Shown in pieces: positions 5,174-58,280 of a DNA stretch of 64,000 nt (position 1 is the stretch's first letter; every line of letters begins with the position of its first letter). A program made the translations under genes and the position numbers. Under the pieces are notes generated by a model. It had not been told where the DNA came from. It saw only the letters and a list, made by a program, of their open reading frames with translations, and ran no database searches. The stretch is taken from NCBI GenBank assembly GCA_951406725.2, contig OX597831.1:79112001-79176000 (forward strand). The letters are read 5' to 3'. The stretch is from Octopus vulgaris (lineage: Eukaryota).

Positions 5174-6461
5174 CGAGGGGCGTTCAATAAGTAATGCCCC
5201 TGACTCACTTTCCATAACAGTAGAGCAACGAAACTTGGCACAGTTATTAGTCTTTTTCTACATAGGAACCACCCAGAGTTACGCATTCTCCCATTGTTTG
5301 ATGCAGCTCTGGAGACCGTTTTTGTAGAAGACCCCAGCTTGGTCCTCCAACCTGAACGCGACTTCAGAAATCAAGGCTGCATCATCTGGGAAACGCTTTC
5401 CTTTCAAAAACAACTTCATGACTGGGAAGAGGTGAAAATCAGAGGGTGCAAGGTCAGGAAAGTAGGGGGATGGGGGAGGAGTTCATAGCCATACGCCTGT
5501 GCTTCTGATCTGGCGACAAGCGAGTTGTGGACCGGAGCGTTGTCCTGCAGGAGGAGGATGCCTTTGCTGATCTTGCCTTGCCTCTTGATTTTGATAACTT
5601 CTCTTAATTTCCTCAAAAGTGAAGCATAATAGGCTCCTGCAATTGTGGTACCCTTTGCCAGGAAATCTGTCATCACTACTCCGTCCTGGTCCCAGAAGAC
5701 TGTGAGCATGACCTTGCCAGCGGAGGGCTGCACCCTTGCCTTCTTTGGAGGGGGTGAGTCCCGGTGCTTCCACTGCATTGACTGGGCTTTGGACTCTGGA
5801 TCATCGTGATGGACCCAGGTTTCATCCTGTGTAATCAGTCTTTTGAAAAATTTTGACTCATCTTCTTGGCACATCTCTAAATTCACCCTCGAGCACTCGA
5901 CGCGTTCTTGCTTCTGGAAAGGCGTGAGCAACCTGGGAATCCATCTGGCAGACACCTTTTGCATATGCAAATGGTCATGAATGATAGTTTCCACAGACCC
6001 GGTACTAATCTTGACCTAATGGGCTATTTGGCGAATAGTTATGCGTCGATCTTCCAAAATGGCAGCCTCAACTTGACGGACAGATGCCTCATCAATGGCA
6101 GAAGGGGCGACCAGATCTGGGAGCTGTTTCCACAGAGTTCCGACCATGTTTGAATTCACGATGCCAGCGTTTTACAAGGTCATATGATGGGGCATCATCA
6201 CCATAAGTTACTTTCATTTCATCAAAAGTCTCCCGTGGTGTGCGTCCTTTCAAATACAAAAACCGGATCACTGCTCGACACTCAACAGGCTCCATTTCAC
6301 ACTTGACTCGTTCAAACACCTGTAAATCAGAAACCACAATTAATTCAGAGCTGTAATTTGCCACTTACTCTATAGAGATATAAATGACTGCACATGCAAA
6401 ATTTCAGCTAGATCAAACAAATGCAAGTGTGTCAGAGGCATTACTTATTGAACGGCCCTCG
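5174..6461 (-). mobile_element. Full-length mariner (DD34D) transposon, 1288 bp
   Basis: 31 bp TIRs cgaggggcgttcaataagtaatgcccctgac / gtcagaggcattacttattgaacggccctcg (2 mismatches); TA target duplication at 5172-5173 and 6462-6463. Confidence 0.95.
5247..6295 (-). pseudogene. Mariner transposase, frameshifted
   Basis: HTH N-terminus MEPVECRAVIRFL..PRSGRP, WIPRLL, ITQDETWVHH, LLQDNAPVH, and frameshifted HPP-PDLAPSDF; split over at least 3 frames. Confidence 0.92.
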
Positions 6462-19742: not shown

Positions 19743-19764
19743 TCTGTGTATGTATGTATGTATG

Positions 19765-19830
<66 letters not shown>

Positions 19831-20050
19831 TATATATATAATATAATATTATATTATATTTAATGTATATATATATATAATATATATTTATATATATAAT
19901 ATATATTCATATATATATATCTATATCTATATATATATATATATGTATGTATGTATGTATGTGTGTCTGTATATATATATACACATATATATACATATAT
20001 ATATACATATATATATATGTATATATGTATGTGTGTATATATATATATAT

Positions 20051-20130
<80 letters not shown>

Positions 20131-20272
20131 ATATATATATATATATATATCAACAATAAAGGAACGGCCATAATAGGCCATTCACCCACTAGAAATAACA
20201 GCCAAAGCTTCAACCGCAAATAAAAGTTAATTCAGTAAACCAGGAGAAAATTTAAAAAACATTTACCCTGTA

Positions 20273-20379
20273 ATTTCTTATACGATATACCGTTTCATCT
20301 GCTGATTAATGGTAAACTAACCTGATTAAATTAAATCAAGCCAATCTTCCACAGGCCCTCAGATTCTTCAGTAAGAAAT
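20273..20379 (-). ncRNA. Type I hammerhead ribozyme, array copy 1
   Basis: Minus strand reads AUUUCUUA-CUGAAGA-AUCUG..CAGAU-GAAA-CGGUAUAUCG-UA-UAAGAAAU. Confidence 0.85.
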
Positions 20380-20765
20380 AGCCCAAGACGGAACAGATAT
20401 TTTCACGAGGCATTTCCGACGTTGCCAAGTTTATATCTGACCTAAAATTTTCAAATCGTCGCACTCGCGCCAAATTTATCGGCAGCAAATAAATATAAGC
20501 CGTCGATTCCATTACGGAATTAACCAGAAAATTCATAATTAATCAATATAGGGTGGCAAAAAAAATTTTGTAGAATTCTTTTGCCACCAGCGGCCTAGTA
20601 GGAAAAAATTAAAATAGTCACAGACCATTTTTAAGTTCAACATCAACAATAAAGGAACGGCCATAATAGGCCATTCACCCACTAGAAATAACAGCCAAAG
20701 CTTCAACCGCAAATAAAAGTTAATTCAGTAAACCAGGAGAAAATTTAAAAAACATTTACCCTGTA

Positions 20766-20872
20766 ATTTCTTATACGATATACCGTTTCATCTGCTGATT
20801 AATGGTAAACTAACCTGATTAAATTAAATCAAGCCAATCTTCCACAGGCCCTCAGATTCTTCAGTAAGAAAT
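20766..20872 (-). ncRNA. Type I hammerhead ribozyme, array copy 2
   Basis: Same motif, +493 bp. Confidence 0.85.
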
Positions 20873-21257
20873 AGCCCAAGACGGAACAGATATTTTCACG
20901 AGGCATTTCCGACGTTGCCAAGTTTATATCTGACCTAAAATTTTCAAATCGTCGCACTCGCGCCAAATTTATCGGCAGCAAATAAATATAAGCCGTCGAT
21001 TCCATTACGGAATTAACCAGAAAATTCATAATTAATCAATATAGGGTGGCAAAAAAATTTTGTAGAATTCTTTTGCCACCAGCGGCCTAGTAGGAAAAAA
21101 ATAAAATAGTCATAGACCATTTTTAAGTTCAACATCAACAATAAAGGAACGGCCATAATAGGCCATTCACCCACTAGAAATAACAGCCAAAGCTTCAACC
21201 GCAAATAAAAGTTAATTCAGTAAACCAGGAGAAAATTTAAAAAACATTTACCCTGTA

Positions 21258-21364
21258 ATTTCTTATACGATATACCGTTTCATCTGCTGATTAATGGTAA
21301 ACTAACCTGATTAAATTAAATCAAGCCAATCTTCCACAGGCCCTCAGATTCTTCAGTAAGAAAT
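21258..21364 (-). ncRNA. Type I hammerhead ribozyme, array copy 3
   Basis: Same motif, +492 bp. Confidence 0.85.
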
Positions 21365-21749
21365 AGCCCAAGACGGAACAGATATTTTCACGAGGCATTT
21401 CCGACGTTGCCAAGTTTATATCTGACCTAAAATTTTCAAATCGTCGCACTCGCGCCAAATTTATCGGCAGCAAATAAATATAAGCCGTCGATTCCATTAC
21501 GGAATTAACCAGAAAATTCATAATTAATCAATATAGGGTGGCAAAAAAATTTTGTAGAATTCTTTTGCCACCAGCGGCCTAGTAGGAAAAAAATAAAATA
21601 GTCATAGACCATTTTTAAGTTCAACATCAACAATAAAGGAACGGCCATAATAGGCCATTCACCCACTAGAAATAACAGCCAAAGCTTCAACCGCAAATAA
21701 AAGTTAATTCAGTAAACCAGGAGAAAATTTAAAAAACATTTACCCTGTA

Positions 21750-21856
21750 ATTTCTTATACGATATACCGTTTCATCTGCTGATTAATGGTAAACTAACCT
21801 GATTAAATTAAATCAAGCCAATCTTCCACAGGCCCTCAGATTCTTCAGTAAGAAAT
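21750..21856 (-). ncRNA. Type I hammerhead ribozyme, array copy 4
   Basis: Same motif, +492 bp. Confidence 0.85.
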
Positions 21857-22112
21857 AGCCCAAGACGGAACAGATATTTTCACGAGGCATTTCCGACGTT
21901 GCCAAGTTTATATCTGACCTAAAATTTTCAAATCGTCGCACTCGCGCCAAATTTATCGGCAGCAAATAAATATAAGCCGTCGATTCCATTACGGAATTAA
22001 CCAGAAAATTCATAATTAATCAATATAGTGCGACGATTTGAAAATTTTAGGTCAGATATAAACTTGGCAACGTCGGAAATGCCTCGTGAAAATATCTGTT
22101 CCGTCTTGGGCT

Positions 22113-22219
22113 ATTTCTTACTGAAGAATCTGAGGGCCTGCGGAAGATTGGCTTTATTTAATTTAATCAGGTTAGTTTACCATTAATCAGCAGATGAAAC
22201 GGTATATCGTATAAGAAAT
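22113..22219 (+). ncRNA. Type I hammerhead ribozyme, array copy 5
   Basis: Stem I 22113-22120/22212-22219, CTGAAGA 22121-22127, stem II ATCTG/CAGAT, GAAA 22196-22199, stem III 22200-22209, predicted cut after GUA at 22211. Confidence 0.85.
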
Positions 22220-22605
22220 TACAGGGTAAATGTTTTTTAAATTTTCTCCTGGTTTACTGAATTAACTTTTATTTGCGGTTGAAGCTTTGGCTGTTATTTC
22301 TAGTGGGTGAATGGCCTATTATGGCCGTTCATTTATTGTTGATGTTGAACTTAAAAATGGTCTATGACTATTTTAATTTTTTCCTACTAGGCCGCTGGTG
22401 GCAAAAGAATTCTACAAAATTTTTTTTGCCACCCTATATTGATTAATTATGAATTTTCTGGTTAATTCCGTAATGGAATCGACGGCTTATATTTATTTGC
22501 TGCCGATAAATTTGGCGCGAGTGCGACGATTTGAAAATTTTAGGTCAGATATAAACTTGGCAACGTCGGAAATGCCTCGTGAAAATATCTGTTCCGTCTT
22601 GGGCT

Positions 22606-22712
22606 ATTTCTTACTGAAGAATCTGAGGGCCTGTGGAAGATTGGCTTGATTTAATTTAATCAGGTTAGTTTACCATTAATCAGCAGATGAAACGGTATAT
22701 CGTATAAGAAAT
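22606..22712 (+). ncRNA. Type I hammerhead ribozyme, array copy 6
   Basis: Same motif, +493 bp. Confidence 0.85.
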
Positions 22713-23098
22713 TACAGGGTAAATGTTTTTTAAATTTTCTCCTGGTTTACTGAATTAACTTTTATTTGCGGTTGAAGCTTTGGCTGTTATTTCTAGTGGG
22801 TGAATGGCCTATTATGGCCGTTCCTTTATTGTTGATGTTGAACTTAAAAATGGTCTATGACTATTTTAATTTTTTCCTACTAGGCCGCTGGTGGCAAAAG
22901 AATTCTACAAAATTTTTTTTGCCACCCTATATTGATTAATTATGAATTTTCTGGTTAATTCCGTAATGGAATCGACGGCTTATATTTATTTGCTGCCGAT
23001 AAATTTGGCGCGAGTGCGACGATTTGAAAATTTTAGGTCAGATATAAACTTGGCAACGTCGGAAATGCCTCGTGAAAATATCTGTTCCGTCTTGGGCT

Positions 23099-23205
23099 AT
23101 TTCTTACTGAAGAATCTGAGGGCCTGTGGAAGATTGGCTTGATTTAATTTAATCAGGTTAGTTTACCATTAATCAGCAGATGAAACGGTATATCGTATAA
23201 GAAAT
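23099..23205 (+). ncRNA. Type I hammerhead ribozyme, array copy 7
   Basis: Same motif, +493 bp. Confidence 0.85.
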
Positions 23206-23429
23206 TACAGGGTAAATGTTTTTAAAATTTTCTCCTGGTTTACTGAATTAACTTTTATTTGCGGTTGAAGCTTTGGCTGTTATTTCTAGTGGGTGAATGG
23301 CCTATTATGGCCGTTCCTTTATTGTTGATGTTGAACTTAAAAATGGTCTATGACTATTTTAATTTTTTCCTACTAGGCCGCTGGTGGCAAAAGAATTCTA
23401 CAAAATTTTTTTTTGCCACCCTATATTGA

Positions 23430-23466
<37 letters not shown>

Positions 23467-23470
<4 letters not shown>

Positions 23471-23680
23471 ATCCAAACATGAATTCACAAAGAGAAAACA
23501 CAACAAGGCGAGGACGTGGAACAAATATAGTATTATTGGACATTCAGGAAAGAAGAAAAGAAGGAGGGTTTAACATTTCGAGCGGAGCTCTTCGTCGGAA
23601 ACATAGGAGAAGGAAAGATCCAGAGAAGGGAAGACAGAGGAAAATAATCGCCACGGTACACACGCTGTCACATTTTGAAT
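23467..23680 (-). mobile_element. Short (TA)n-embedded element with a minimal hammerhead (23568-23602)
   Basis: Inverted homolog of 26876-27080; minus strand GTTT-CCGACGA-A-GAGC tcc GCTC-GAAA-TG-TT-AAAC. Confidence 0.7.
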
Positions 23681-56235: not shown

Positions 56236-58280
56236 TGCACAGCTTCTAACGCTGGAGATGTATTACAGTGTCAGCTGTTCACTACCAGTGAACTAAGGTA
56301 ACACCTCTTATTTTTTCGAGCAACTTCCGGAGTATTCGAGCGGTTCCAAAAAGTGCTATTTCTGCAAGTGCTCCACTCTTATTGCAGCTCCTATTTATTC
56401 CACGTACTTCTCGAGATTTTTGGTCACTGTTTCCAGGGCTTCGACAATTATTGGTACTACTGCTACCGTTTTCATCGACCACAACTGCTTAACTTATCAT
56501 ATCTCTCGACTTTTCTTTCTTCCTTATTGCATACCTTTTTATCAGCTGGGCATGCTATATCTATGATCCAGCATAGTTTGTTTTCAGTCTCAATTAAAAC
56601 TATGTCTGGCTTCCTATTCTCTATCTCATGGTCACACTGAATCATAAAATCCCATAGGATATTTGCATTTCTAATTTCGACAATGCTTTCAGATGGTCGT
56701 ACCAATGTTTTGCCCTGTCAAGTCCATACTTGTTGCAAAGTGTCCAATGGACAAGCCTGGCTATATTGCCGTGGCGTCTCTCATGTTCTTTCTGGGCTAG
56801 TGGCGAATAGTGACTGGAAATATGCCATACGGTTTCACCGTTTTGTCCACAGATTCTGCACTTATCACTTTCTGATTTGTTGCCTATTCTGTATTTTATG
56901 TAGTTTGTTCTTAGTGCTTGCTCTTGGGCAGTACAGATAGGAGCCTCTGTTTCCGGTTTTAAATCTATTTTAGTCATCCACAGCCATCTTTTTTCTCTGT
57001 CTTTCTTATCTTTCAATAGCCCTATGTAATTGACCATGCATTCTTTTCTTTAACCACCTATTTTCAGTTTCATTTGTTTTCAATTTCTTGTATAGTGCTT
57101 TATCTTTGCAATCTTTCATCCTATACAAGCCTGACCTTCCTACTTCTAATAATAGCGGTTCTGTGGCATTTTTTACATACCATGCTCTGTTGTTTTCTTC
57201 TGCTCTAATGCTGTGTTCGCATCCAATAAGTGATTTCCCCCTCTTTTTCTTGGTACATATAGTCTGTCTATGTCACATTTTGGGCTGAGTGACCATATCT
57301 AGTTAGCAACTTCCTTGTCTTTCTGTCTAAGCTGTTTACCTCTGCTCCATATCTAAAGAGTGAAATTGCCCAGGCGTTGATAGCTTTGATCTGATTCCGT
57401 CCGTTTAATTTAGACTAAAGGATCAGTCTCAGGCTGCGTAAGTACTCCACCTTAAATTTTTCTGTCATTTCTTTCTCTATTAATTTATCCATTTCCAAAA
57501 TCCCCAAGTACTTATAGCTTGTCTCTTCTATCTGCTTCATAACCTCCCCCGACGGTATCGTTAGTCCGTCCATACATTTGATTTTGCCTCTCTGGAAGAC
57601 TAACACACCACACTTTCTCAGTCCGAACTCCATTCTGATATCAGCACTGAAGGTATACACTGTATCAACGAGGGAACTGACTTGGGCTTCATCTTTACCA
57701 TAAAGTTTGAGGTCATCCATGAATAACAAATGGTTGACTATTTGTTGGCGGCTTTTGAATACATACCCAGCATTTGCTTTCCTCAGAATCAAGCACAGTA
57801 CAGAGATCAATGGGGACAGGCAGTCTCCTTGGAAGATGCCCCTCCTAATTTCTACTGTCCCCAAATTTCTTCCGTATGCTGTCAGGTCCGTCCTCCAATT
57901 CGCCCTACTTTTTCTAAGCAATCGCTCAACAACCGATGCAATCCCAAACAGGTTCATACATTCCATAATCCAAGAATGTGGGATCATATTGTAAGCCTTA
58001 CGATAGTCAATCCATGACATGGCTAAGTTACTCTTCCCCCACTTGCAGTCTCTGAGTACAGTTTTTTCTATCAGGAGTTCACCAAATCTTTCGATCCGGT
58101 AGCCTTAAACTCCATCTGGTCCCGGGGCTTTCCAGTTGCTCATTTGTTTTTGCTGATTTCCATCACTTCCCTAACTGAAATGACTAGTTCTCTCTGTTTT
58201 GGACAGACTTCTGTTTGTTTCAGTTCTTGCAACCATTCAACATCCTTCTTGTGCTACTTGTCTTTGCTCCAGATGTCACT
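56236..58280 (-). mobile_element. Dong/R4-clade RLE LINE, 5'-truncated and decayed, ending in (TAA)n
   Basis: WIDYRKAY, GIFQGDCLSPL, HLLFMDDLKLY, YKYLG, AQEQAL, CRICG..ETVWHI, RRHGNI, RKPDIVL, IIDIACP; same family as 8357-8930. Confidence 0.93.

Follow-up and report, generated by a model that had tools for sequence, protein, structure and literature searches.

How did two tandem arrays of a small hammerhead-bearing repeat come to stand head-to-head, as near-perfect mirror images, inside a TA microsatellite? The question is raised by a 64,000-nt stretch of the Octopus vulgaris genome (assembly GCA_951406725.2, contig OX597831.1, positions 79,112,001 to 79,176,000 of the forward strand), referred to here as the window. 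The element is a retrozyme-like unit of about 493 nt, and most of its insertions across the genome end at two fixed but different unit positions, sites A and B. We consider it likely, judging from the sequence of these insertions, that a Penelope-like element (PLE) reverse transcriptase (RT)-endonuclease acting in trans inserted a non-LTR (long terminal repeat) retrozyme into the microsatellite, with both DNA ends primed at sites A and B of what was likely one RNA.

The left arm of the array (20149..22028, minus strand) comprises 3.8 tandem units and the right arm (22027..23437, plus strand) 2.9 units, with 99% matches and a unit length of 492-494 bp according to Tandem Repeats Finder (TRF); the region has about 35% GC. 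All unit coordinates (u1-u493) were taken from a 493-nt reference unit, U, at 22520..23012 (plus strand). Alignment of the right arm to the reverse complement of 20535-21942 gave 1401 matches over 1411 positions, the remainder being 7 mismatches and 3 one-base gaps. The innermost pair is 22027 with 21942, which leaves an unpaired spacer of 84 bp (21943..22026), the stretch at the inner end of the left arm that has no mirror counterpart. The dinucleotide AG at 22027..22028 is common to both arms and forms a 2-bp overlap at the head-to-head joint. The alignment confirmed the fold-back, spacer, pairing and overlap described in a first-pass annotation of this DNA; of the left-arm partner segment that it placed at about 20533-21942, the end was correct and the start is 20535. 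Its statement that both ribozyme-sense 3' ends point outward into (TA)n agrees with the strands of the hammerhead motif, minus in the left arm and plus in the right.

The two outer ends lie at different unit positions: u317 (site A) on the left, at 20149, and u424 (site B) on the right. The inner 5' ends are at u408 in the left or "A" arm and at u1 in the right or "B" arm. The stretch from A to B (u318-u424; 23330..23437, plus strand) is found at one outer end only and is called the tail; hairpins were predicted in it at about u328-348 and u371-407. TRF reported a (TA)n-rich target tract on the left (19749..20150) and a (TA)16 tract on the right (23435..23466), inside which a target-site duplication is unreadable. 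No open reading frame (ORF) of at least 120 aa was present inside the arrays, and none there encoded an RT or a GIY-YIG domain.

Each unit carries one type I hammerhead motif, placed in U at u87-u194 (22606..22713, plus strand) by pattern and fold, with a predicted cut after u185 (22704). It consists of an 8-bp stem I, a CUGANGA core, a long stem II, GAAA, and a 4-bp stem III with a 4-nt palindromic loop. Seven copies were found by pattern in the window: three in the right arm, the others being at 22113-22220 and 23099-23206 (plus strand), and four in the left arm at 21749..21856, 21257-21364, 20765-20872 and 20272-20379 (minus strand), the last of which lies outside the 1.4-kb stem formed by the two arms. 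The fold was more stable than expected for stems I and II (z = -3.5), and no Rfam family matched the window at the gathering threshold. In 15 relatives the core was invariant, the variable position 7 took all four bases, the cleavage triplet was GUA or GUC, and the stem III loop stayed palindromic (TATA or TGCA; CATG in the more distant family F3). In ensembles of the whole monomer, the hammerhead fold was a minor state (stem II 0.07-0.24). The unit is present in sequencing runs of several organisms, none of those listed being on record as RNA, and one closed contig of 523 nt (493 + 30) was obtained from a run guessed as RNA, in which circle and tandem, and RNA and DNA, are indistinguishable. 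Starting from an ATG in site B (u423), an open frame of about 66 codons was read by eye over the u493/u1 boundary; it is probably due to chance.

The retrozyme-like unit is a dispersed multi-copy family. The genome comprises 227 contigs totalling 2.8 Gb. A search of it with the unit gave 749 candidates, of which 39 were scored; all of these loci were taken, and one was a duplicate, giving 38 independent loci. Among these loci, chosen for their full units, 37 were head-to-head, so that the geometry of the window recurs at other loci. In 33 the outer ends were A plus B (u317, in one case u319, together with u414-428); none was A plus A or B plus B. Two loci, L039 and L040 (G000:C11:12.81 Mb and 12.75 Mb), form a segmental duplication about 63 kb apart, in which one insertion has a different number of units in the two copies and a unit holds a 52-nt foreign insert. 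Exact-pattern searches for junctions with TA gave at least 181 at u317 and at least 930 at u419-424, and none for the reversed-pattern controls.

The first 100 of the 181 exact A-end matches (contigs C1-C10; the window locus is not among them) were used as a test set, which avoids choosing long arrays. The opposite arm ended at u414-428 in 79 of these loci (49 at u424) and at A in none; the rest were 14 single-armed loci, 6 that could not be classed and one ending at u205. One degraded two-armed locus was excluded later, leaving 78. The reciprocal pick of 20 stretches covering 22 of the first 26 B matches, whose sibling units are 85-100% alike, gave 22 insertions: the opposite arm ended at u313-322 by BLAST in 15 and at B in none, while 6 had no second arm and one was complex. 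The surplus of B over A is largely due to sibling subfamilies. Two more distant families, about 70-80% alike, have the same two ends, the latter sample being biased by its query. These two retrozyme-like families were seen at L060:7942-8270, L134:5060-5700 and L211-L229; the third family has 3547 first-look candidates and a hammerhead with CATG in loop 3. Against this background the window locus is an ordinary family member with unusually long arms, the median of the shorter arm being 161 nt and only 5 of 78 loci reaching 1000 nt or more. A transcript running through both arms might, as the first-pass annotation supposed, form about 1.4 kb of double-stranded RNA, open to ADAR or siRNA action, in which the ribozymes would be masked. 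The window insertion is young.

The first-pass annotation had proposed that the outer ends stop wherever the unit resembles the TA repeat, and had expected variable end points across loci. That they lie at different unit positions held, while the remainder did not: each end has a fixed place of its own in the unit, u317 for one and u414-428 for the other. Site A is used exactly despite matching TA at 2 bases only, as do 93 of the 493 unit positions, and it was therefore not chosen by sequence match; TA-likeness was rejected as its cause, since better TA-like runs end at u34, u181, u413 and u466. Site B is a 15-nt AT-rich window directly 3' of a stable hairpin, and TA-likeness may be a source of the spread within it. 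The two sites are about 107 nt apart in the unit, and the tail is 97-111 nt long. A helix pairing sites A and B was present in the local minimum-free-energy fold and was likewise rejected, as no such pair exceeded 0.05 in whole-monomer ensembles, linear or circular. A consensus fold of the tail from 14 relatives had double-sided changes at just 2 of 37 pairs.

The inner ends differ from locus to locus and carry a second regularity. Stops on the first pass through the unit fell at u183-213, 3' of the predicted cut, in 22 A arms and 18 B arms; the 31 nt immediately 5' of it held 2 and 3, respectively. The stop hazard in this interval was 0.91 (A) and 1.19 (B) per 100 nt versus 0.09-0.13 elsewhere, i.e. 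7 to 10 times background. The two arms of a locus were also coupled: both stopped there in 14 loci, both crossed in 37, and 2 + 2 were discordant (Fisher p = 3e-9). A coupling test free of any chosen interval gave 23 loci in which both arms stopped, 37 in which both read through and 18 in which they disagreed (p = 1e-6). Six shifted control intervals held 0-2 stop/stop loci each, and five of them at most one with p of at least 0.06. Outside the stop/stop class, 10 of 64 loci had arms whose inner ends lay no more than 5 nt apart in unit coordinates, where 1.4 such loci were expected. Within it, the B arm ended 3' of the A arm in 11 of 14 loci, which is weak, u207 also being a U-run. A second cluster of inner ends was seen at u390-u412, at a U-run and on the 3' side of the u371-407 hairpin, with the window locus (u408) included; some B arms there are just 15-24 nt long.

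Of 68 simple head-to-head junctions, 45 were free of inserted bases and 23 had 1-63 inserted bases. Overlaps of at least 2 bp were found at 30 of the 45 insert-free junctions versus 17% by chance. The commonest overlap length was 2 bp (13 of 45), as in the window, where a single overlap of this size is near chance; the excess reaches significance only when loci are pooled. Junctions of this kind may be akin to those of polymerase-theta joining. At L051, L151 and L193, where the arms stopped near the cut, the junctions hold 50 to several hundred inserted bases that are slipped copies of the AT-run u207-215. An extra templated piece of the unit lies between the arms at L032, L033, L068, L139, L141 and L172, and about u241-273 was captured in both L032 and L033.

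Variants were counted over 118 loci at sites covered by at least three copies, with homopolymer-adjacent sites masked. The substitutions comprised 103 singletons, 44 that were fixed in every covering copy of a locus, many of them subfamily markers, and 13 partial ones. Rare variants were shared by both arms in 14 cases and confined to one arm in 2. Fixed locus-private changes in multi-unit arrays point to a monomer bottleneck, as would be expected on a circle.

From these observations we propose the following sequence of events. A PLE protein, acting as an asymmetric dimer, would bind the A-to-B domain of the RNA and cut both strands of (TA)n. One DNA 3' end would then prime at site A (u317) and its counterpart within site B (u414-428), likely on one RNA molecule. 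If the template were a ribozyme-cut linear monomer, both cDNAs would run off the same 5' end and give short two-armed insertions; if it were a ligated circle or an uncut multimer, both RTs would read through and give multi-unit arms, as in the window. The trailing RT, coming from B, would have to displace the cDNA made from A; PLE RTs are not known to have RNase H, the lack of which would permit strand displacement. The single-stranded cDNA ends may anneal at 1-6 bp, host end-joining would fill in, and each cDNA would template the second strand of the other. The tail would then correspond to how far apart the two start sites lie, and the spacer to how far apart the two cDNAs stopped. The first-pass annotation had already supposed that both ends of a break primed reverse transcription, with the cDNAs joined by microhomology, and that the RNA was multimeric or circular. 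The former fits the 79 of 100 loci, the excess of microhomology and the 29 of 78 loci discussed below that preclude a fold-back copy, and the latter fits multi-unit arms with variants fixed across units.

A coding family with the same target was found in the same genome. This young family, revealed by a GIY-YIG search, has a 781-aa RT + GIY-YIG frame after a 479-aa frame and inserts in (TA)n; its terminal repeat carries a hammerhead-like motif, and its two 3' ends are separated by 40 nt. The frames overlap (L093:2268-6960 and L090-L106) instead of forming the usual single ORF, and many copies keep the 781-aa frame open; at least 120 homologues of this protein were found at 42-58% identity. Junctions numbered at least 531 for its A end and at least 112 for its B end. 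Of 19 B-ended copies, 11 had an inverted arm ending at A and none at B, 4 were single-armed and 4 could not be classed. In the range with complete lists, six outward A+B pairs and no A+A pair were counted by eye among 100 A and 19 B matches. The A+B rule thus extends to a coding element, in which two arms are the minority. The family has no similarity to the 493-nt unit; mobilization of the latter by a PLE is likely, judged from target, tail, hammerhead and geometry.

Several observations weigh against twin priming by a PLE protein on one RNA. Five of the 79 two-armed loci were classed by eye, and the 14 single-armed loci mean that two arms are not obligate; the 781-aa family is itself mostly single-armed (531 A versus 112 B), with 2 of 17 ORF-picked copies inverted. 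The 40 GIY-YIG loci examined (148 matches listed, 6136 candidates) held no unit-like sequence except one nested stub of 57 bp, and no ORF partner was found in the 20 B-end stretches. The interval u183-213 was picked after the data had been seen, and later passes have a smaller excess of stops there too (0.43 and 0.32 per 100 nt; p = 0.0008 and 0.09), so that structural stalling contributes and some of these stops could be stalls at stem I or at the U-run at u207. The control interval u152-182 gave p = 0.0045 on two loci. The 13 partial variants (e.g. L043, L044 and L061) are at odds with a single circular monomer as template and would call for multimers, template switching, conversion or noise in the assembly. 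Covariation in the hammerhead was not above that of shuffles (26 of 500 reach its score). No contig listed from four contig sets was seen to bridge the window junction at 22027. In the Poseidon system in vitro, the start site was alike on both strands and ribozyme cleavage was not needed (PMC11167929).

Twin priming could also take place with each RT of the dimer copying its own RNA, both from one transcript or held in a dimeric hammerhead, hence the shared haplotype and cut state. Such an arrangement would need no strand displacement, and a common source array would yield shared variants; the 4-bp stem III, with a loop that is palindromic in relatives, is as in hammerheads that cleave as dimers (PMC7229834). 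However, it leaves unexplained the 10 of 64 loci in which both arms end at the same arbitrary unit position and the use of only one of the two sites on each RNA copy, and the tendency in the stop/stop class for the B arm to end 3' of its partner (11 of 14 loci) looks as if the two polymerases were queuing, subject to the U-run noted above. We regard two separate templates as doubtful.

In PLEs, it has been suggested that a singly primed cDNA folds back and copies itself (PMC3846280), with the endonuclease resolving the second end at a fixed site to produce the tail (PMC8557442). The excess of near-perfect palindromic junctions (10 of 64) would suit this route, as would a variant at L045 that is mirrored in both innermost units, and containment of one arm within the other is possible at 49 of 78 loci. 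In the other 29, however, neither arm is contained in the other and a fold-back copy is impossible; it is therefore not the general route, and is excluded as the sole mechanism. It would also require B to be the primary end in 29 loci and A in 20, and inserted bases at 23 of 68 junctions are typical of end-joining. At the window locus, private changes of the innermost right unit are missing from the left arm, for which later mutation could equally account. Self-copying of one cDNA is, taken together, an unlikely origin of the family's insertions.

A process at the DNA level, be it an inverted-repeat transposon, a rolling-circle DNA element, or unequal crossing-over of a satellite followed by inversion, would fit the fixed outer termini, the TA target and the inverted repeats that flank the whole insertion. 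Some partial variants suggest later exchange between units, and local amplification has been invoked for such arrays (bioRxiv 10.64898/2026.07.22.740005). Fixed termini had been named in the first-pass annotation as the mark of a DNA transposon, and fixed termini were found, yet they do not imply one. The two ends are different sequences. A terminal-inverted-repeat transposon or a miniature inverted-repeat transposable element was rejected on the same data, with matching ends in 0 of 79 loci and an inner junction that differs among loci. Moreover, the inner ends pile up on one side of a predicted RNA cleavage site (22 versus 2, 18 versus 3) that would be invisible to a DNA process, and intermediate variants are few, most being single or else fixed throughout both arms. 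We hold a DNA-level origin to be very unlikely. That the inversion is a long-read fold-back or assembly artefact, as fold-back reads make inverted repeats and no listed contig from four runs spans the window junction, deserves almost no credence, because 7 base differences and 3 gaps separate the arms, each of which has its own fixed end site and its own unique flank, the A+B rule holds at 79 of 100 loci, and contigs from a run of unrecorded library type, labelled as another organism, contain at least 10 other head-to-head unit joints (weak, the sides being just 20-28 letters).

Elsewhere in the window, a different repeat on the minus strand (23467-23680) ends in the same TA tract, and the same end was seen beside L140, L153 and L158; a minimal hammerhead-like motif was noted in it by eye, with a fold that was not significant (z = +0.4). 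A Pfam scan of 19 less repetitive ORFs, out of 117 listed in the window and with one further ORF set aside for a frame slip, gave a mariner transposase fragment (5419-6015, minus strand; PF01359, E 5e-24), an RT fragment (57418-58104, minus strand; PF00078, E 1e-13) and two weak low-complexity matches, and is silent on introns.

The origin of tandem and inverted PLE insertions and of their one-sided tails is described as an open question (PMC8557442), and the insertion step of animal retrozymes has been proposed rather than shown (PMC7229834; bioRxiv 10.64898/2026.07.22.740005). There is perhaps an even chance that Penelope-type retrotransposition at large is an assigned twin priming, in which an asymmetric dimer directs the two cut DNA ends to separate, fixed start sites on one and the same RNA. 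If so, one rule would explain the tail, the inverted pseudo-LTR (pLTR) and the partial tandems of the whole Penelope class, and the retrozyme arrays described here would record two processes in an animal germ line: ribozyme cleavage, as pairs of cDNAs that run off at the cut, and rolling-circle reverse transcription by two polymerases on a circular RNA. As the unit is short, young and present in hundreds of copies, its insertions can be counted. Three rules are directly testable with an in vitro system of the type in PMC11167929: the pairing of an A end with a B end, the coupling of stops at the ribozyme cut, and a haplotype common to both arms. The geometry was already known; the A+B pairing rule, the coupled stops and the head-to-head retrozyme arrays appear new, and neither these nor twin priming were found in the literature searched on PLEs and retrozymes, where closed-access papers and supplements may hold them.

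The octopus element has the sequence features by which non-LTR (metazoan) retrozymes are recognized (Cervera and de la Pena 2020, PMC7229834; Li, Clavereau, Pollet 2026, bioRxiv 10.64898/2026.07.22.740005): a non-coding, low-GC tandem unit, one type I hammerhead per unit, dispersed arrays and coexisting Penelope-like elements. For these retrozymes, a circular RNA template and mobilization by PLEs have been proposed. The unit is longer, 493 nt versus 150-450 (PMC7229834), and the accessible text of the two papers describes no head-to-head arrays, tails or fixed end pairs. RNA and cleavage have been shown for published retrozymes; for the octopus unit both are predicted from sequence.

Inverted copies joined at their 5' ends, which the first-pass annotation had called typical of Penelope insertions, are standard for PLEs. 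Like the endonuclease-bearing members of this group, the octopus family has a 5'-truncated inverted copy placed head-to-head, an extension at one end, microsatellite targets and a hammerhead in the repeat; it differs in having no ORF in the unit and in a tail of 97-111 nt versus 30-40 (PMC8557442, PMC3846280, PMC8969392). These papers attribute the inverted and tailed form to self-priming or endonuclease resolution. The combination expected of a non-autonomous PLE, a head-to-head inverted 5'-truncated copy with a one-sided tail, is present in 79 of 100 loci; two arms are thus the rule in the octopus family and an option in PLEs, and the octopus arms may both be multimers.

The closest experimental parallel is Poseidon of Anolis (Frangieh et al. 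2024, PMC11167929), which in vitro cuts and extends both strands of AT-rich DNA. Its RT uses two internal RNA start sites that bound the tail, with little priming homology, and the protein is predicted to be a dimer; the accessible text does not link the two sites to inverted insertions (PMC11167929). In the octopus family, by comparison, the sites are paired one per end, and the predicted cut site is recorded in the inner ends. Twin priming in L1, which Ostertag and Kazazian are said to have described in 2001, reportedly lets both target ends prime on one RNA and joins the cDNAs by microhomology to give a 5' inversion. The second site in L1 is reportedly variable and used occasionally, with arms that mostly do not overlap, whereas the octopus family usually has a second site, always at a fixed place, and arm overlaps that reach 1.4 kb.
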